Shown here piece by piece: positions 38,900 to 47,826 of a stretch of 64,000 nt of DNA. The notes under the pieces are model-generated. The model saw only the letters and a list, made by a program, of their open reading frames with translations, was not told the origin of the DNA and made no database searches. The DNA is taken from the NCBI GenBank assembly GCA_945865325.1, contig CAMBFA010000001.1:6645-70644 (forward strand), written 5' to 3'. The translations under genes were made by a program, and so were the position numbers. The DNA is from Candidatus Kuenenia stuttgartensis. Its GTDB lineage: Bacteria; Planctomycetota; Planctomycetia; Pirellulales; UBA1268. The first letter of the stretch is position 1; every line of letters begins with the position of its first letter.

Positions 38900-39035
38900 G
38901 CTTCGTTCCCCGAAGCGACCGCCAAGCCGACGACCGCACCCGCTCCGCGGCCATGAACGACCGCAGGGGTGATGCAGGACCGCAAGGCCCCGCACCACCC
39001 CCGTCGGGTGTTGTCATTCGCAGAAGGGACGGCGA

Positions 39036-40991
39036 TCAGCGCCAATCCTTCCCCGGCAGCTTTGTCGGCCACTCGTCGTCGGTGAGCCACACGAGCGATG
39101 TCGACGTCGAAGCCAGGCCGGCGGCCTGCTTCGGCTGAGCGGCGGTGATCGCCGCCGAGCCCTCGGCATCGACACTGACACGGACCTGCTCGAAGTCGAC
39201 GTCCGACGTGCACTGGCTCTGGTGGCGCGACGGCCGGAATCCGGCCGGCACCTTCCCGAGCACCGCATCGATCCGCTTCTTGCTTCGAAGACCCGCAAGC
39301 GAGAGCTCGACGGTGTCGCCGATCCGACGAAGGACGGCGTTGTCGAGCCGGGCAGCATCGGGCAATCGCAGCAGCGCCGTGATGTCACGGGCACCAGAAC
39401 GGAGATCGCTCCCGGCAGCCCCCCGCTCTCCCTTCGGACCAGCTGGCCCCACCGCACCAGCCTTCCCGTCGACGCCGTTCTTGCCGTCCTTGCCGGCGGG
39501 GCCCACTGAGCCAGCCTTGCCATCGAGGCCGTTCTTCCCGTCCTTGCCAGACGCACCGGCCGGACCGGCCTTCCCGTCGACGCCGTTCTTGCCATCCTTG
39601 CCCGCGGGGCCCACTGAGCCAGCCTTGCCATCGAGGCCGTTCTTCCCATCCTTGCCAGACGCACCGGCCGGACCGGCCTTCCCGTCGACGCCGTTCTTGC
39701 CGTCCTTGCCCGCCGCACCGGCCAGGCCAGGCTTCCCGTCGACGCCGTTCTTGCCGTCCTTCCCGGCAGGGCCAGCCACGCCGGGCTTCCCATCAACGCC
39801 AGCCTTGCCATCGAGGCCGTTCTTCCCGTCCTTGCCAGCCGCACCGGCCAGGCCAGGCTTCCCGTCGACGCCGTTCTTGCCGTCCTTCCCGGCAGGGCCA
39901 GCCACGCCAGGCTTCCCGTCAGCGCCAGCCTTGCCATCGAGGCCGTTCTTCCCGTCCTTGCCAGGCGTGCCAGCAGGGCCAGCCACGCCGGGCTTCCCGT
40001 CAGCCCCAGCCTTGCCGTCGAGGCCGTTCTTCCCGTCCTTGCCAGACGTGCCAGCAGGGCCAGCCACGCCGGGCTTCCCGTCAGCGCCAGCCTTGCCGTC
40101 GAGGCCGTTCTTCCCGTCCTTGCCAGACGTGCCAGCAGGACCGGCCACACCGGGCTTCCCGTCGGCGCCAGCCTTGCCGTCGAGGCCGTTCTTCCCGTCC
40201 TTGCCAGACGTGCCAGCAGGGCCAGCCACACCGGGCTTCCCGTCAGCGCCAGCCTTGCCGTCGACGCCGTTCTTCCCGTCGACGCCGTTCTTCCCGTCCT
40301 TGCCGGGCGCGCCGTCCTTCCCGTGAAGGCCGTCCTTCCCTGCGGCGCCTGCGGCGCCCGCCAGGCCACGCTCGCCAGCAGGGCCAGCCACACCGGGCTT
40401 CCCGTCAGCGCCAGCCTTGCCGTCGAGGCCATTCTTCCCATCGACGCCGTTCTTCCCGTCCTTGCCGGGCGCGCCGTCCTTCCCTGCGGCGCCTGCGGCG
40501 CCTGCGGCGCCCGCCGGGCCACGCTCACCAGCCGGTCCGGCCACGCCGGGCTTCCCGTCAGCGCCATTCTTGCCGTCGAGGCCGTTCTTCCCGTCCTTGC
40601 CGGGCGCGCCGTCCTTGCCGTGAAGGCCGTCCTTCCCAGGAGCACCAGCGGGGCCCGCCGGGCCACGCTCACCGGCGACACCGGGCAACCCACGCTCCCC
40701 CTGCAGCCCCGTCGCACCAGCGATGCCACGATCGCCGGAGATTCCCTTCTCCCCCTTGGCACCGTGAGCCCCACCGCCGATGCCGATGAGATTCGCGACA
40801 CTGGAGGCAAAACCCTTGCCGTGCCAGAGGTTCAACTCCCGCCACTTCTCAAGATCCTGATCCCACACCCACAGCAGGCCGGCATGCTCCTCATACCAGG
40901 CATCGCCCACGGCTCCATGGCGGGGCAGGCTGGTGCGGTCGTCAATCAGTCCATGAACGGTCTTGATCGGGGGAAACTTCAAAAGGGACAC
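39036..40991 (-). CDS. Collagen-like triple-helix repeat protein with non-collagen N- and C-terminal domains
   Basis: 152 consecutive Gly-X-Y triplets (track-ORF residues 141-596), flanked by a ~73-aa N-terminal and a 122-aa C-terminal domain. The likely start is GTG at 40991, preceded by AGGAG 7 nt upstream. The track ORF runs to 41192 through low-complexity non-coding-looking sequence. Confidence 0.85.
   Translation of the reverse strand: MSLLKFPPIKTVHGLIDDRTSLPRHGAVGDAWYEEHAGLLWVWDQDLEKWRELNLWHGKGFASSVANLIGIGGGAHGAKGEKGISGDRGIAGATGLQGERGLPGVAGERGPAGPAGAPGKDGLHGKDGAPGKDGKNGLDGKNGADGKPGVAGPAGERGPAGAAGAAGAAGKDGAPGKDGKNGVDGKNGLDGKAGADGKPGVAGPAGERGLAGAAGAAGKDGLHGKDGAPGKDGKNGVDGKNGVDGKAGADGKPGVAGPAGTSGKDGKNGLDGKAGADGKPGVAGPAGTSGKDGKNGLDGKAGADGKPGVAGPAGTSGKDGKNGLDGKAGADGKPGVAGPAGTPGKDGKNGLDGKAGADGKPGVAGPAGKDGKNGVDGKPGLAGAAGKDGKNGLDGKAGVDGKPGVAGPAGKDGKNGVDGKPGLAGAAGKDGKNGVDGKAGPAGASGKDGKNGLDGKAGSVGPAGKDGKNGVDGKAGPAGASGKDGKNGLDGKAGSVGPAGKDGKNGVDGKAGAVGPAGPKGERGAAGSDLRSGARDITALLRLPDAARLDNAVLRRIGDTVELSLAGLRSKKRIDAVLGKVPAGFRPSRHQSQCTSDVDFEQVRVSVDAEGSAAITAAQPKQAAGLASTSTSLVWLTDDEWPTKLPGKDWR
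39405..40772 (-). repeat. In-frame tandem repeat region encoding the Gly-X-Y stalk
   Basis: 9-nt periodicity throughout. Nested higher-order units include 81 bp x ~4 (39888-40205; GKDGKNGLDGKAGADGKPGVAGPAGTS) and 108 bp x 2 (39495-39710). Several other frames on both strands stay open for 0.7-1.8 kb here, as a by-product. Confidence 0.9.
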
Positions 40992-41210
40992 GAAAAAACT
41001 CCTGTTTTCGGATGAGTTTTGGCAGGGCTCGGGGCAGAAACCATGGGGCTCACCACGCAAGCACCGAAGCCAGCACAGCCCCCGCAGTCCCCGGAAAATA
41101 CCAATCTCTCCCGGGAAATCAAATGAGAAAGATCGGCCAGCGCGGCCAGATCCAAGGCGGGGGCAGAACAGTCCTGCCGAGGGGCTACCCACAGGAGCCG
41201 CCCAGAGGAG

Positions 41211-42655: not shown

Positions 42656-43867
42656 TCAACGTCCCCCGTTCTTCCCAGCTGGGCTCTCCTCCCCCCCCTG
42701 CCCTCTCCTCCCGGCGCCGTCATCGGCCTCAATGAACACATCGACCTGTTGCCCGACGAAGAGCCGCTTTCCGCTGCCGGGAGGCCCGTCCCGTTCCGGA
42801 GCACAATCGTAGATCACCTGGAGGACGCGAGTGTCCACCCGCTCGGAGTTGTCCCCCGTGAGCGACTTCTTCGGCACGACAAACGGCTCGACCCGGACGA
42901 AGGCGAGGGTGTACTCGGTTCCGGCGCTCCCCCGCGGCACCGCACGGGCTGCGAAGGCCGGATCGAAGCGGTCGATCTCGAACTCGTCGATATCGACACG
43001 CACGTGGAGCCGATCGACATTCCCAAGGACGACCAGCGGCTGCCCCGGCGGAGCACCGACAAACTCTCCGGGCCGGACGTTGACTTGCAGGACCTCGCCC
43101 GCCACGAACGACCGGACCGTGAGCCGATCGATGTCGACTTCCAGCTTGGTGACGTCGGCTTCCGCCTTGAGAACGGCGGCCCGAGACACGTCACGGTCGT
43201 AGTTCCAAGATCCCGCTTCACGGAGGGCCAGCTCCGCCTCGGCCTTCTGGAGAGCCGCGCGGGCGTAGGCATCGGCCTGGCGTTTTTCGATCACGTCCTG
43301 CTCGGTGATCACCTGTTTGGCGAAGATCTCCTCGGCCCTCCGCAGCGCATCGGCAGCCGCGATCCCGGCGGACTTCGCTTCATTGACAGCGGCCACCAAC
43401 GGCGGAATCGTTTCCCGCCGGGGCTCCGCCTCGAGGCGAATCAATTCACTTCGGGCCTGCGACACCGCCGCCTTCCGCACCTCCAACTCGCCGCGCAGAT
43501 CCCGGTCGTCGAGGCAGAACAGCGGCGTCCCCCCCTCGATCCTGTCGCCAACCTTCACGAGCACCTCAACGACGACCCCGGGAGTCGCGGAACCGACGGC
43601 GATGTTCTCCGACTGCGCCTCAACGATCCCGGAACAGGCGAGGGTCGCGGTGAACGGGCTCCGCGGTGGCATGGCCGGCGGGGCCGGCGAGCGCTCCACT
43701 CGACGGGTGCTCCAGACAAACCAGCCGGCGAACGCCGCCAGCGCCACAGCCACCAGGGGGAGCGCAATTTGCGTCGCCAGATCGGCGCTGCTCCTGGGGC
43801 GCTCGAGGCGGTGGTGGACCGCTGCGGATGGGGCAGAATCCGCGGCGGGGGCCGGAGAATCGTTCAT
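42656..43867 (-). CDS. HlyD/DevB-type periplasmic adaptor (membrane fusion protein)
   Basis: N-terminal TM (IALPLVAVALAAFAGWFVW), lipoyl-like VVVEVLVKVGDRIEGGTPLFCLDD, long coiled-coil, beta-barrel domain. ATG at 43867 (MNDSPAP...). Confidence 0.85.
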   Translation of the reverse strand: MNDSPAPAADSAPSAAVHHRLERPRSSADLATQIALPLVAVALAAFAGWFVWSTRRVERSPAPPAMPPRSPFTATLACSGIVEAQSENIAVGSATPGVVVEVLVKVGDRIEGGTPLFCLDDRDLRGELEVRKAAVSQARSELIRLEAEPRRETIPPLVAAVNEAKSAGIAAADALRRAEEIFAKQVITEQDVIEKRQADAYARAALQKAEAELALREAGSWNYDRDVSRAAVLKAEADVTKLEVDIDRLTVRSFVAGEVLQVNVRPGEFVGAPPGQPLVVLGNVDRLHVRVDIDEFEIDRFDPAFAARAVPRGSAGTEYTLAFVRVEPFVVPKKSLTGDNSERVDTRVLQVIYDCAPERDGPPGSGKRLFVGQQVDVFIEADDGAGRRGQGGEESPAGKNGGR

Positions 43868-43877
43868 GGGTGTCTTC

Positions 43878-44618
43878 CTACGTGTGGTGCGGGGGTGCAC
43901 CAATCGCTCCCCTTTTGCGGGCCTCGATCGACACGATCTGACCATCCTCCATCGTCGCGATCCGGTCGGCATAGGGATAGACCCGCTGGTCGTGGGTGAC
44001 GACGATCACGACCCTGTCCGGGCGGACGGCAAGCCCGGCGATCAGTTCCATGGTGATCCGACCATTCTCGGCATCGAGGGCGCTGGTCGGCTCATCGCAG
44101 ATCAGGAGGCGGGGCTCGTGGACGAGCGCCCGGGCGATCGCCACGCGTTGCTGCTGACCGCCGGAAAGCTCGCTCGGCAGATTCGTCAGCCGGCTCCCGA
44201 GCCCGAGCCGGTCGAGGAGGGCCGCCGCGGCCGGGAGGGCCCTTGCCCGCGACGAGCCGGCGATGATCAGCGGCACCGCCGCGTTCTCCACGGCCGTGAG
44301 GGCGGGAAGGAGATTGTAAGACTGGAAGATGAAGCCGACGTTCGAGCGGCGAAACCGCACCCGCGCCGCCGGGGGCATGGCGACAAGATCGTGGCCGAGG
44401 ACATGGACCTCCCCTCCGGTGGGCTGGAGGGTGCCGGCGATGATCGAGACGAGCGTCGTCTTTCCGCATCCGCTCGGGCCGACGAGCATGAGCAACTCGC
44501 CATGGGGGATGTCGAGATCGACTCCGCGCAGCGCCCGCGTCATGGCATCACCGGAGCCGAAGTCGCGAGTCACGCTCCGGACCTGGACGGCGGACGACTG
44601 GGGGATGGTGGGGGGCAT
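43878..44618 (-). CDS. ABC transporter ATP-binding protein (DevA/MacB-NBD-like)
   Basis: GPSGCGKTTL Walker A, LSGGQQQRVAIARAL signature, LLICDEPTSALD Walker B. ATG at 44618. Confidence 0.9.
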   Translation of the reverse strand: MPPTIPQSSAVQVRSVTRDFGSGDAMTRALRGVDLDIPHGELLMLVGPSGCGKTTLVSIIAGTLQPTGGEVHVLGHDLVAMPPAARVRFRRSNVGFIFQSYNLLPALTAVENAAVPLIIAGSSRARALPAAAALLDRLGLGSRLTNLPSELSGGQQQRVAIARALVHEPRLLICDEPTSALDAENGRITMELIAGLAVRPDRVVIVVTHDQRVYPYADRIATMEDGQIVSIEARKRGAIGAPPHHT

Positions 44619-44649
44619 CGGGATTCGCCCGTGACGGCAGGGATGGAGG

Positions 44650-45786
44650 TCAGCCCCTGAAGACGATCGCTGGGTCAACAATGAACACCCGGCGGATCGA
44701 CAGGAGGCTCGCCAGAAGCACGATCAGGAACACCGCCACGGCGGTGATCACGAGCACCTGCCAGGGCATGTAGAACGAGAGCTTCGAAAACGATCGCGTG
44801 CCCCAGCCGAATAGCGCCGCGAGGCCGACACCCACGCCGAGCCCGACGAGCCCCACATGAAGGGCCTGGGCGAGAACCATGAGCAGAATCGTCCCGTTGC
44901 CGGTGCCCATCGCCTTGAGGGCCCCGAACTGCCGAAGATTCTCCACGATGAACAGGTAGAACGTTTGCCCCGCGATGGCGGTGCCGACGAGAAACCCGAG
45001 CCCCACCGTGATGCCGAAATTGATGGGGATCCCTGTGTTGAGCAGATAGTAGCGGATCGTCTTGTCGAGGAAGGCATCGCGCGAGAGGGCCTGAAGCCCG
45101 GTCTGGGACCTGATGCGCTCCGCCAACTCCGCCGCGGCGACGCCGGGGGCCGGCTCGGCAAGGACAAACGACAGCACCTTACGCTCCGGCGGGGCGAACC
45201 GGACGGCCTGGGAGTATCGCGTGTAGACCACAGGAAAGCTCTGGAACGTCTTGCGGGCCCGGGCGAGGCCAACGATCACCGCCCGCCGGTCGTTCATCTC
45301 GATGATCCGCCCCCGCTTGAAGGGCTCTTCCGGCCAGAGCTTCCGGTATCCGACGACGTCCATGATCACCGCGTCGGGAGCACGGAGGTCGTCGATGCTC
45401 CCCTCGATCATGTTCAGCGGAGCGCCGATGAATGTGGCGTCGTCGAGGCCGAGGAGGATCACCTGCTCATAGGAGCCACTTTCGAGCCTGGCCCGGGCGA
45501 TCCCTTTATAGAACCGGACGGCCCAGTCGACGCCCGAAACCCCGCGGACGCGGTAGAGGTGGGTGTCGGCCATCGGCTTGACGTCATCGACATATTTTAC
45601 TTTCGGGTCCATCACCCAAACGCCCGCCCCTTCGACATCGAGGATCTGGCTGACCGTCAGGGCCATCAAGCCACAGAAGATCGACGACTGCTGGGCGATG
45701 AGGAGCGCGGCAAAGGCAACGCCGAACACGATGCCAAGATACTTGGCACGGTTCCCGATCAGCATTTTCCAGGCGATCCAGAGCAT
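44650..45786 (-). CDS. ABC exporter permease, FtsX/DevC-like
   Basis: 378 aa. N-terminal TM, a large periplasmic domain, then three C-terminal TM helices (FtsX fold). The N-terminus MLWIAWKMLIGNRAKYLGIVFGVAFAALLI resembles DevC. Confidence 0.82.
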   Translation of the reverse strand: MLWIAWKMLIGNRAKYLGIVFGVAFAALLIAQQSSIFCGLMALTVSQILDVEGAGVWVMDPKVKYVDDVKPMADTHLYRVRGVSGVDWAVRFYKGIARARLESGSYEQVILLGLDDATFIGAPLNMIEGSIDDLRAPDAVIMDVVGYRKLWPEEPFKRGRIIEMNDRRAVIVGLARARKTFQSFPVVYTRYSQAVRFAPPERKVLSFVLAEPAPGVAAAELAERIRSQTGLQALSRDAFLDKTIRYYLLNTGIPINFGITVGLGFLVGTAIAGQTFYLFIVENLRQFGALKAMGTGNGTILLMVLAQALHVGLVGLGVGVGLAALFGWGTRSFSKLSFYMPWQVLVITAVAVFLIVLLASLLSIRRVFIVDPAIVFRG

Positions 45787-45936
45787 GGGTTCGAGTGTAC
45801 CGGCCGGGGAGCCCGCACGGCGTCACCCCGGCCACCAACGCGAAACGTGCCGCGAACGGATCGTCTGCCCCCGGTCACGCGCCCCACGGGGAGGCTGTGG
45901 TATTCTGCGACTCCGCAACCACGAGCAGGTATCCCC

Positions 45937-47826
45937 GTGCCAGGGCAGGCTGCCCCCCAACCGTCCGAGCCCTCCGGTCCGTCGTGCGGTGGATCGCCTC
46001 CGGTCGATCCGCGCATCACTTCGGTACTCGCGCGCTGGTGGGGCTTCGATCAACTCCGCCCGCTCCAAGCGGAGGCGATCGCGGCGGCGCTCGACGGCCA
46101 CGATTCGGTCGTCGTCATGCCCACCGGCGGGGGCAAGAGCCTCTGCTACCAGCTACCGCCCCTGGTCGGGGAGGCCACCGACGTCGTCGTCTCGCCGCTG
46201 GTGGCGCTGATGAAGGATCAGGTCGACTCCCTCGAGGCGATCGGCTATCCCGCAGCCGCGCTCCACTCGCAGATGTCCCAGGAGGAGCGGTCGAACGTCC
46301 GCGACCGGCTCGCCGCCGGGGAGCTGCGGCTCCTGTTCACGGCACCGGAACGGCTCGTCAACAGCGGGCTCCTCGACCTCCTCGCCCGCGTCGGCGTGAA
46401 GCGCTTCGCGATCGATGAGGCCCACTGCATCAGCCAGTGGGGGCATGACTTCCGCCCCGAGTACCGGCAGCTGGCCCTCCTCCGGGACCGTTTCCCCGCG
46501 GCCAGCGTCCACGCCTTCACCGCCACCGCCACGCCGCGCGTCCGGGCCGACATCGCCGCCCAGCTCCACCTCCGCTCGCCGCGGATCCTCCTCGGGACAT
46601 TCGACCGGCCGAACCTCTGCTACCGCGTCGTCCCGCGCACCGACCGGATCGCACAAACACTCACGACGCTCGGCCGCCACCGGGGCGAGGCCTCGATCGT
46701 CTACTGCATCTCGCGGAAGGAGACCGAACAGCTCGCCACCAGGCTCGCCGCCGAGGGGATCCTTGCCAAGCCCTACCACGCGGGGCTCGACCCGACCCAG
46801 CGTCGCCGCACCCAGGAAGCGTTCGCCCGCGAGACGATCGACGTCGTCGTCGCGACCGTCGCCTTCGGCATGGGGATCGACCGCTCCGATGTCCGTCTCG
46901 TCCTCCACACCTCGCTCCCCAAAAGCCTCGAGGCCTACCAGCAGGAGACGGGGCGGTCCGGCCGCGACGGCCTAGCGGCCGAGTGCGTCCTCCTCTATTC
47001 CTCCGCCGACGTCTTCAGTTGGGAATCGCTCGTCCGAAAGAGCGCCGGCGAATCGGATCTCGACCCCGACGAGCAGGAGCGACTGATCGCCGGACAACTC
47101 GAGCACCTCCATGCGATGCGCCGGTATGCCCAGGCCGCGCGGTGCCGGCACGCGGCCCTCTCGGAGTATTTCGGGCAGGCCTACGGCGCCGAGCCCTGCG
47201 GGGCGTGCGACGTCTGTCTGGGGGAGACCGAGAGCCTCCCCGATTCGACCGTGATGGCCCAGAAGCTGATCTCCTGCGTGGCCCGGGTCGGAGAGCGGTT
47301 CGGGGTCCGTCATGTCTGCGAGGTCCTCCGCGGGGCAAAGACCGACGGCATCCTCCGCCATGGCCACGACCGGCTCTCGACGTTCGGGCTCCTCGCCGCG
47401 ATCGACCAGCGGACGGCCGAGAACTTCGTCCACCAGCTCCTTGACCAGGGCCTCCTCGCCCGCAGCCCGGGGGACCGCCCGGTGGTGATGCTCAACGCCC
47501 TCTCCTGGGAGGTGATGCGCGGACAACGGCCGGTGGTGCTGCTCGAACCGCGTGTCGGCAAGGCCAAGCCCTCGAAGCCCGACGCCGACGACTGGCAGGG
47601 GGTCGACCGCGATCTCTTCGAGCGGCTCCGTTCCTGGCGGCGGCGGGTGGCCGAGGCCCGCGGCAAGCCGGCCTGGACGATCCTCGACGATAAGGCGCTG
47701 CGCGGGATCGCCCGCGAAAAGCCGACGAGCCCGGCGGCCCTGCTGCGCGTGAAGGGGATCGGCGAGAAGCGCTTGGCCGATTTCGGTGAGGCAATCCTCG
47801 ATCTCGTGGCTGGAAAACCGGCCTGA
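45937..47826 (+). CDS. recQ: ATP-dependent DNA helicase RecQ
   Basis: FGFDQLRPLQAEAI, MPTGGGKSLCYQLP, DEAHCISQWGHDFRPEY, zinc-binding/RQC region and C-terminal HRDC (VKGIGEKRLADFG). In-frame GTG at 45937. The upstream 360 aa of track ORF 44857..47826 are antisense to the permease gene. Confidence 0.9.
   Translation: MPGQAAPQPSEPSGPSCGGSPPVDPRITSVLARWWGFDQLRPLQAEAIAAALDGHDSVVVMPTGGGKSLCYQLPPLVGEATDVVVSPLVALMKDQVDSLEAIGYPAAALHSQMSQEERSNVRDRLAAGELRLLFTAPERLVNSGLLDLLARVGVKRFAIDEAHCISQWGHDFRPEYRQLALLRDRFPAASVHAFTATATPRVRADIAAQLHLRSPRILLGTFDRPNLCYRVVPRTDRIAQTLTTLGRHRGEASIVYCISRKETEQLATRLAAEGILAKPYHAGLDPTQRRRTQEAFARETIDVVVATVAFGMGIDRSDVRLVLHTSLPKSLEAYQQETGRSGRDGLAAECVLLYSSADVFSWESLVRKSAGESDLDPDEQERLIAGQLEHLHAMRRYAQAARCRHAALSEYFGQAYGAEPCGACDVCLGETESLPDSTVMAQKLISCVARVGERFGVRHVCEVLRGAKTDGILRHGHDRLSTFGLLAAIDQRTAENFVHQLLDQGLLARSPGDRPVVMLNALSWEVMRGQRPVVLLEPRVGKAKPSKPDADDWQGVDRDLFERLRSWRRRVAEARGKPAWTILDDKALRGIAREKPTSPAALLRVKGIGEKRLADFGEAILDLVAGKPA

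Follow-up and report, generated by a model that had tools for sequence, protein, structure and literature searches.

A predicted collagen-stalk fibre protein with a knob of the phage receptor-binding-head type, encoded by a conserved chromosomal gene of freshwater Planctomycetota

We analysed a 64,000-nucleotide stretch of contig CAMBFA010000001.1 (positions 6,645 to 70,644 of the forward strand; assembly GCA_945865325.1, deposited as Candidatus Kuenenia stuttgartensis and placed by GTDB in the Pirellulales, UBA1268), hereafter the window, and identified in it a complete minus-strand gene (39036–40991, in window positions) for a 651-residue fibre protein that consists of a 73-residue N-terminal module, 456 residues of collagen repeat and a 122-residue C-terminal domain, the knob. 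By its profile and motif matches, the knob is a homologue of the domain that ends actinophage minor tail proteins, and its predicted structure is that of a phage receptor-binding head, with the fold seen in siphophage heads and adenovirus knobs. Judged from its sequence and chromosomal surroundings, the gene is host-resident and selected, and is not a prophage remnant. We propose that it encodes a phage-derived receptor-binding fibre which has become a fixed chromosomal gene and would serve the host as an adhesion or recognition fibre on its own cell envelope, a reading that we give an even chance of being correct. Within it, we are much less sure of the mounting point than of the rest, the envelope being only slightly favoured over a phage-like particle encoded elsewhere.

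The knob (residues 530–651; 39039–39404, minus strand) carries the motifs G.R(D/E)...RR(V/I)G.TV.L...P.GFRP...W.T.D.WP..LPG and matches two PHROG families, phrog_3971 (E = 1.4 × 10−14) and phrog_6614, annotated 'minor tail protein' (E = 8.7 × 10−10), in both cases at the C-terminal end of the profile. Neither end domain of the protein is matched in NCBIfam or in Pfam, where nothing besides Collagen was found at E ≤ 10. Close homologues of the knob are all fragments from metagenome-assembled genomes (MAGs) of Planctomycetota. We built a profile from these sequences and searched it against 1.84 billion representative proteins, obtaining 68 matches, in nearly all of which the domain stands at the protein C-terminus. 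The distant matches are 25–33% identical to the window protein and have the motif set G.R(D/N)…RR(V/I)G..V.L…P.GFRP…W.T.D.WP..LPG in common; G4, R6, R27, V32, G55, F56, T108, P113, L116 and P117 are invariant in the alignment of the window protein with these distant homologues. One distant relative is encoded in a siphophage, where tape-measure and minor-tail genes precede it and amidase, holin and integrase genes follow, and the phage-type version of the domain matches 105 phage records, 102 of them from Arthrobacter phages, with the annotation 'hypothetical' or 'minor tail protein'; because of this tail-gene context and these records, we regard the distant matches as being of phage origin. 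The planctomycete version of the domain gave no tblastn match in 50,697 phage genomes (INPHARED). The knob also occurs in tandem in phage-type metagenomic proteins (~10 copies in the 1766-residue P0035, and two each in P0044 and P0062), which is unusual for a domain that is otherwise terminal, and one 122-residue knob fragment (P0008) carries the JGI label 'peptidoglycan/xylan/chitin deacetylase'.

A search of PDB sequences with the domain profile returned chance-level matches to astrovirus spikes only (E = 1.4). A first structural model, based on a shallow alignment of 26 sequences, had a predicted local distance difference test score (pLDDT) of 63 and was unusable; distant phage-type domains were then added, and the resulting AlphaFold2 model of the monomer is an all-beta sandwich with a pLDDT of 95.8 and a predicted template modelling score (pTM) of 0.87. 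Foldseek comparison of this model to the PDB placed the receptor-binding heads of phages TP901-1 (ORF49) and p2, adenovirus knobs and reovirus sigma1 at the top (E from 4.5 × 10−3; query-normalised template modelling score, TMq, 0.5–0.58), that is, almost exclusively the distal heads of viral fibres, whereas the top 50 fold matches contain no chain of C1q, TNF or BclA. Among the predicted viral structures of BFVD, the best matches were minor tail proteins of Corynebacterium and Arthrobacter phages (E ~5 × 10−6, TMq 0.68–0.74), followed by receptor-binding proteins of Lactococcus and Leuconostoc phages and by two 'collagen' proteins of uncultured siphophages with the same knob. It is because of these matches in both collections that we assign the knob to the phage receptor-binding-head type. 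A preliminary description of the gene, made by a model from the sequence without database searches, had likened the C-terminal domain to the knob of phage tail fibres and had proposed a Foldseek search of it; the PHROG matches, the motifs shared with actinophage minor-tail C-termini and the outcome of that search, with viral receptor-binding heads on top and neither C1q nor BclA among the first 50, all agree with this suggestion.

The N-terminal module (residues 1–73; 40773–40991, minus strand) has a core at residues 6–53, FPPI..G..DD...LP..G..GDAWYEE..G.LWVWD.....W, which is followed by a short linker, GFASSVANLIGIGG. Across 11 sequences of the family the pattern [KR]x[FIL]PP[IV]…G..D…LP..G..GDAWYEE..G.LW[IV]WD…W begins a few residues past the initiator and contains 14 invariant positions. 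All 11 modules match the tail-fibre family phrog_3904 (best E = 5.5 × 10−5) at internal profile positions (449–492 of 1086), and five of the 11 also match the tail-fibre family phrog_15437. Comparison with hhalign to the hairpin that precedes the head in phage proteins ('GRxIxxWDxxNxRxQ') gave E = 5.7 × 10−4 and a probability of 30% over 19 columns only, and no relation was found to the other pre-head segment of phages, 'GSPEG…TGW'. Taken by its sequence, the module is likely to have a phage-fibre ancestry, in line with the anchor-like N-terminal domain that had been suggested for this protein, although this part of the earlier suggestion is less strongly supported than that for the C-terminal domain. 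The absence of a signal peptide and of a sortase motif, both stated in the preliminary description, could be verified: N-terminal hydropathy is low in six members of the family (the 9-residue maximum is 0.99 here and ≤1.63 in the relatives), no signal-type hydrophobic stretch is present in the N-termini of the family members tested, and the window protein contains no LPXTG and ends in ...LPGKDWR.

The collagen region (residues 74–529; 39405–40772, minus strand) comprises 152 unbroken Gly-X-Y triplets with imperfect repeats of 27, 54, 81, 108, 126 and 162 nucleotides, and the whole protein matches the Pfam family Collagen (PF01391) with E = 5.7 × 10−74. Our recount, with Gly at every third residue from 141 to 594 of the maximal open reading frame (ORF), returned the same 152 triplets and 456 residues that had been reported before, and the earlier account of the composition, mostly Lys, Asp, Asn and Ala with few Pro, likewise holds (X positions: Lys 60, Ala 25, Val 18, Pro 17, Leu 16; Y positions: Ala 49, Asp 46, Asn 18, Pro 16). 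Pro makes up 11% and charged residues 40% of the X and Y positions. As regards the charge-pair stabilisation that the preliminary description had suggested, Asp(Y)-Gly-Lys(X') is the common pairing, with 40 occurrences, whereas the classical stabilising order Lys-Gly-Asp/Glu occurs only twice. At 0.286 nm per residue, the 456 residues would form a rod of ~130 nm. No second run of at least six triplets was detected in any other frame or place in the window. The tract cannot be a product of chance, and the architecture recurs in more than 100 loci of independent assemblies. Complete homologues from many assemblies contain 59–229 triplets, and the syntenic orthologues 118, 188 and 204. Two short-read assemblies of the same population (L134:4247-5914 and L135:4247-5923) have an identical AroB, N-module and knob and carry 120 and 121 triplets, compared to 152 in the window; each lacks a different set of internal repeat blocks, and both remain in frame. 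The count of 152 is thus to be read as either length-polymorphic or affected by short-read collapse, the existence of the repeat not being in doubt. Most short-read MAG contigs end inside the repeat. Three further long ORFs overlap the collagen region in another frame or on the opposite strand (39014–40810, minus strand, 598 residues; 39145–40326, plus strand, 393 residues; 40323–41015, plus strand, 230 residues); they are rich in Pro, Ala and Arg, and we consider them by-products of the GC-rich triplet repeat and not genes.

The maximal minus-strand ORF at this locus extends over 39036–41192 (718 residues; stop codon at 39036–39038), and its collagen run lies at residues 141–594. The GTG at 40991, which is the start given in the preliminary description and that of the 651-residue product in our annotation, is located eight bases past an AGGAG (40999–41003), and GTG and AGGAG are both invariant in the alignment of four orthologous loci; the same GTG was chosen as the start in independent gene calls of sibling assemblies. 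The 220 nucleotides 5' of the GTG differ between orthologues by single-nucleotide indels and are therefore non-coding. This leader (40992–41210, minus strand) is nonetheless 78–88% identical among five orthologues; it contains conserved hairpins and has diverged less than the synonymous sites in the fibre gene (synonymous divergence, dS, 0.3–0.6). A search of Rfam gave no match for a structured RNA in the leader, and no covariation was detected. The orthologue alignment reveals a promoter-like pair on the minus strand, TTGATT (41117–41122) and TATTTT (41095–41100) with 16 nucleotides between them, which may be the promoter of the fibre gene; its scanner score is sub-threshold. On the 3' side of the upstream PAP2-family gene, the terminator scan found a terminator-like hairpin with a T-run (41131–41153, minus strand), and this hairpin is also conserved in the orthologues. 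Because of the hairpin after the PAP2 gene and the conserved promoter-like pair in the leader, the sequence suggests that the fibre gene is a transcription unit of its own. An exact-sequence look-up of the 651-residue protein returned no record.

The window is part of an ordinary Pirellulales chromosome, with genes for DUF1501 and PSCyt2/PSD1 proteins, arginyl-tRNA synthetase (ArgRS), pantothenate kinase, Obg and a ParA-like ATPase. The gene aroB is convergent on the fibre gene, and upstream of it are genes for a PAP2-family membrane protein, a MacB-type ABC/HlyD exporter operon and RecQ. We saw no tRNA, integrase, phage structural gene or att feature in the 64 kb, and found no capsid, tail, baseplate or lysis gene within at least 20 kb of the fibre gene in the window, nor adjoining it in at least nine chromosomal contexts. 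That no phage genes are nearby had been noted before, and the neighbours are indeed housekeeping genes. The preliminary description had named two findings that would speak against novelty, a known tail fibre within an evident prophage and a terminal domain of the BclA/C1q kind; we looked for both and encountered neither. PADLOC defence models matched neither the fibre protein nor its neighbours.

In a scan of one genome per species, we identified 52 loci, all in MAGs of uncultured freshwater Planctomycetota (Pirellulales/Pirellulaceae) and mostly at the ends of contigs, a result of assemblies breaking within the repeat. The synteny PAP2–fibre gene–aroB–…–ArgRS was found at 13 loci, down to an AroB identity of 72%, and its PAP2 side was confirmed on metagenome contigs. 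Eleven MAGs contain two loci; the second paralogue is ~60% identical in the C-terminal domain and, where its flanks are assembled, has a P-loop NTPase gene on one side and apbE on the other. In other lineages the gene stands in at least seven more neighbourhoods, all of them composed of ordinary genes (GDSL lipase, DUF7133, DeaD, PSD1/PSCyt2, 3-keto-disaccharide hydrolase, GFO oxidoreductase), which brings the total to at least nine distinct chromosomal contexts, and no conserved partner gene is common to different contexts. Some of the MAGs with window-like genes and synteny (L009, L011, L014, L033, L039 and L042 from ENA, and L022) are recorded as 'Candidatus Kuenenia stuttgartiensis' or 'uncultured Chitinophaga sp.', names that are probably taxonomic errors.

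Among the syntenic orthologues, the ratio of nonsynonymous to synonymous substitution rates (dN/dS) of the C-terminal domain has a median of 0.095 (range 0.02–0.23), and the domain is conserved at least as well as AroB; these rates show strong purifying selection. More than 30 complete homologues have an intact reading frame. The G+C content at third codon positions (GC3) of the two end domains is 0.74 and 0.81, compared to 0.79–0.85 in the neighbouring genes. Among 2.9 million viral contigs (IMG/VR), the N-module was not found at all, and the C-terminal domain gave one distant match, of the actinophage type only, and no close relative.

A metagenome scan with the N-module as the query identified 67 loci, of which the majority encode N-module, collagen and knob in the same order as in the window. 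Two JGI lake metagenome contigs differ from this plan (L101:1039-2766 and L104:6001-7986): here the N-module is followed by 58–132 triplets and no knob, and the protein ends in a short hydrophobic segment with many Gly and Pro residues, NWPWMAVPAGILSGWLGG, and a 150-residue KPVV(T/V)EG tail rich in Pro, Val, Glu and Lys. Genes for an adenylate cyclase, an MscS-cNMP channel and an RTX/beta-propeller protein are the neighbours of this form. At three other loci (L075:3000-4004, L078:3344-4348 and L085:46-804), an N-module that is 79% identical to that of the window is joined to an unknown domain of ~200 residues, and collagen is almost absent; in L075 the hairpin is present a second time, as GGDAWFDSAAGILWIWDDLDSNW, and a Mutator-family transposase lies just downstream. 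This last form may be a genuine third architecture; otherwise, the locus has been rearranged. From the sequences compared, the N-module is the constant element of a small modular family, which fits a docking role and is compatible with either polarity of the fibre.

If the protein works like the phage fibres it resembles, three chains would associate via the C-terminal knob, an arrangement we infer because the solved members of the knob's fold class are trimers. The knob would nucleate the collagen triple helix, to give a flexible rod of about 100–175 nm (~130 nm in the case of the window protein), and the N-module would dock this rod to a partner structure. At the distal end the knob may bind a ligand, probably a surface carbohydrate, by analogy with its phage counterparts. 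Trimer assembly would probably be cytoplasmic, like that of a phage fibre, since no family member has a signal peptide. A wider form of this proposal, which we put forward only tentatively, is that a co-opted phage fibre has become a host organelle, either as the cell's own adhesive or capture fibres of 100–175 nm that are exported without a signal peptide, or as the recognition fibres of an unrecognised planctomycete particle similar to a gene transfer agent (GTA) or a tailocin; the N-module, [KR]x[FIL]PP[IV]…GDAWYEE…LWIWD…W, would then be a new docking domain that is used in at least three architectures (with a terminal knob, with a terminal hydrophobic segment and Pro-rich tail, and without collagen).

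Several observations weigh against a host-serving fibre on the cell envelope. The Foldseek E values against solved structures are modest (4.5 × 10−3, with a TM-score of ~0.56), and the homology of the N-module to phage fibres is weak (single-sequence E values of 5 × 10−5 to 0.06, and an hhalign probability of 30% over 19 columns). The missing signal peptide disfavours simple surface display in a diderm cell and fits a particle-borne fibre at least equally well. Paralogues are more similar in the C-terminal domain (57–61% identity) than in the N-module (37–48%), the opposite of what is usual in phages, where the anchor is constant and the tip varies, and the N-module of L101 and L104 is joined to a hydrophobic segment and a Pro-rich tail, so that the polarity could be reversed. 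Some of these observations favour a doubtful yet serious alternative, namely that the protein is the tail or host-recognition fibre of a phage-derived particle (GTA, tailocin or extracellular contractile injection system, eCIS), the other genes of which are found elsewhere in the genome; the fibre would be put together in the cytoplasm, attach through its N-module to the baseplate of the particle and leave the cell by lysis. Such a particle would account for the family-wide absence of a signal peptide and for the phage-fibre relationships of both end domains; the combination of one N-module with alternative C-terminal parts, together with two paralogues per genome that have diverged knobs, resembles a set of interchangeable fibres for one docking site. 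Collagen shafts are possible in eCIS fibres (PMC12923769), which counts in favour of this alternative. Purifying selection and host-like composition, both of which are found in host-maintained particles, also favour it, as does the example of the Rhodobacter capsulatus GTA, whose fibre and spike genes are encoded apart from the main cluster. The alternative is opposed by the lack of any capsid, tail, baseplate or lysis gene over at least 20 kb around the gene in the window or adjoining it in at least nine contexts, and by the match of the N-module to an internal region of phrog_3904 (449–492 of 1086) and to no recognised baseplate-attachment domain. To our knowledge, no such particle has been described in Planctomycetota. 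A fibre of reversed polarity, in which the C-terminal knob anchors to the wall or a surface glycan of the cell itself and the N-module is the distal working end, we consider unlikely. The low dN/dS of the knob (~0.1) and the greater similarity of paralogues in the knob than in the N-module would be expected if the knob bound a conserved self structure, and in L101 and L104 the knob is swapped for a hydrophobic segment and Pro-rich spacer that resemble an envelope anchor; that segment, however, is short and rich in Gly and Pro, the L075 and L085 architecture has neither kind of anchor, and in the phage homologues the domain is the C-terminal, distal, receptor-binding end.

The remaining explanations have far lower probabilities. 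An inert leftover of a decayed prophage, reduced to a lone tail-fibre gene, would explain why the gene stands alone and why both end domains have phage affinities, but it is very unlikely and, in our view, close to refuted: frames are intact in more than 30 complete homologues with dN/dS of 0.02–0.23, synteny is kept where AroB is only 72% identical, the second paralogue is conserved too, as are the start codon, the AGGAG and the leader, composition is host-like, and there is no flanking integrase, att site or tRNA. It is just as improbable that the protein belongs to a characterised collagen-like family, be it of the BclA type, the Scl type or the type of the Escherichia coli prophage proteins with PfN, PCoil and PfC domains, even though it shares with them the succession of globular end, collagen stalk and globular end. 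The N-terminal targeting motif of BclA, a protein without a signal peptide, contains LPPI, and the fibre family begins with [KR]x[FIL]PP[IV]; this likeness involves four residues, however, and was spotted post hoc. Pfam recognises only Collagen at E ≤ 10, NCBIfam recognises nothing, no C1q, TNF or BclA structure is among the top 50 PDB folds, the protein has no signal peptide and no LPXTG, and the host is a non-sporulating planctomycete. The least credible explanation is that the long unbroken repeat is an assembly artefact; most short-read MAG contigs do break in the repeat, and the sibling assemblies have 120 and 121 triplets, but every independent version is in frame and uninterrupted between the same two end domains, with 59–229 triplets in complete homologues.

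In the window, the PAP2 and fibre genes are immediately preceded on the minus strand by a MacB-type tripartite exporter operon, composed of an FtsX permease (44650–45786), an ABC ATPase (43878–44681) and an HlyD adaptor (42656–43972). The adjacency HlyD–PAP2–fibre gene is kept in the close relatives L067–L073 and absent in L022. We did not adopt this operon as the export route of the fibre, as it is missing at the distant syntenic locus L022 and at the paralogue locus; MacB pumps are also not known to export trimers of 200 kDa. The RecQ ORF further upstream (44857–47826, plus strand, 989 residues) has helicase domains from residue 400 only; since its first ~380 codons run across the FtsX and ABC genes of the minus strand, its true start is probably near 46 kb. 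We considered whether the low-GC part of the window (1–22 kb) is a prophage or island and rejected this, since the lower GC there is that of a ribosomal-protein/SecY/RpoA operon.

Collagen-stalk fibres with receptor-binding knobs are a standard device of phages, whereas BclA, Scl and Lcl, which are chromosomally encoded in bacteria, have end domains of other kinds; in the present case, the phage form, together with its knob, appears to be kept as a stable, selected, multi-copy gene of the host. The molecular basis of surface fibres and attachment structures in Planctomycetota is poorly understood. Should the fibre be displayed by the cell, or by a particle under host control, this would clearly exemplify the reuse of a phage receptor-binding protein for a host function, and would give molecular access to attachment or cell-cell recognition in planctomycetes that are abundant in lakes. 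The family is nearly invisible in databases, as there are no Pfam or NCBIfam models of its end domains and most entries are 'hypothetical protein' fragments of 100–230 residues, because short-read assemblies break in the repeat.

We found no paper on planctomycete collagen-like proteins in the literature searched. Compared to Scl-type collagens, which combine a Sec signal peptide with an LPXTG anchor, the window protein has neither. It resembles BclA, the glycoprotein of the exosporium nap of Bacillus anthracis, in placing a collagen stalk between a short N-terminal domain and a C-terminal knob. BclA lacks a signal peptide since its assembly takes place within the mother cell, and its knob is trimeric and C1q/TNF-like; the window protein differs from it in having no C1q-type match in sequence or fold, a host that forms no spores, a longer stalk and Pro in ~11% of its X and Y positions. 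The nearest published parallels are prophage collagen-like proteins (PMC3368898) and eCIS fibres with collagen shafts (PMC12923769). Collagen fibres of phages and prophages (PHROG 1806, 'collagen like minor tail', and the E. coli O157 prophage proteins, PMC3368898) have the same three-part plan as the window protein, and two 'collagen' proteins of uncultured siphophages (BFVD A0A8S5V9E6 and A0A8S5P6G7) end in a knob of the same fold. The PfN, PCoil and PfC domains of the E. coli proteins were not detected by Pfam in the window protein, however, and whereas those fibres are encoded by phages or prophages, the window family has a fixed chromosomal position, paralogues and a host-like mode of evolution.

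Among solved structures, the heads of TP901-1 ORF49 (PDB 2F0C, 4HEP, 4IOS) and p2 (2BSD, 1ZRU) and the adenovirus knobs are the best matches (E = 4.5 × 10−3 to 0.1, TMq 0.5–0.58); they are beta-sandwich heads, as the knob is predicted to be from the monomer model, and stand at the distal end of trimeric viral fibres. They have no detectable sequence similarity to the knob, and their stalks are beta-helical, coiled-coil or beta-spiral rather than collagen. The heads of lactococcal phages bind cell-wall saccharides. The closest relationship is to the actinophage minor tail proteins (PHROGs 3971 and 6614; for example those of Arthrobacter phages Inked gp25, Laroye, Tatanka and Adaia), the C-terminal 'GDTGxRD…RRVG…P.GFRP…W.T.D.WP..LPG' domain of which is homologous to the knob, with 25–33% identity and TM-scores of 0.68–0.74. 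These proteins are encoded in phage tail modules, are mostly without collagen and have the 'GRxIxxWDxxNxRxQ' hairpin or 'GSPEG…TGW' directly before the head, whereas the window protein has a 456-residue collagen rod in this place, a lineage-specific N-module and a chromosomal location with no phage neighbours. The lack of a phage tail module sets it apart from the tail fibres of virions, whereas its conserved motifs and profile matches make it a genuine member of the family of C-terminal domains of phage minor tail proteins.

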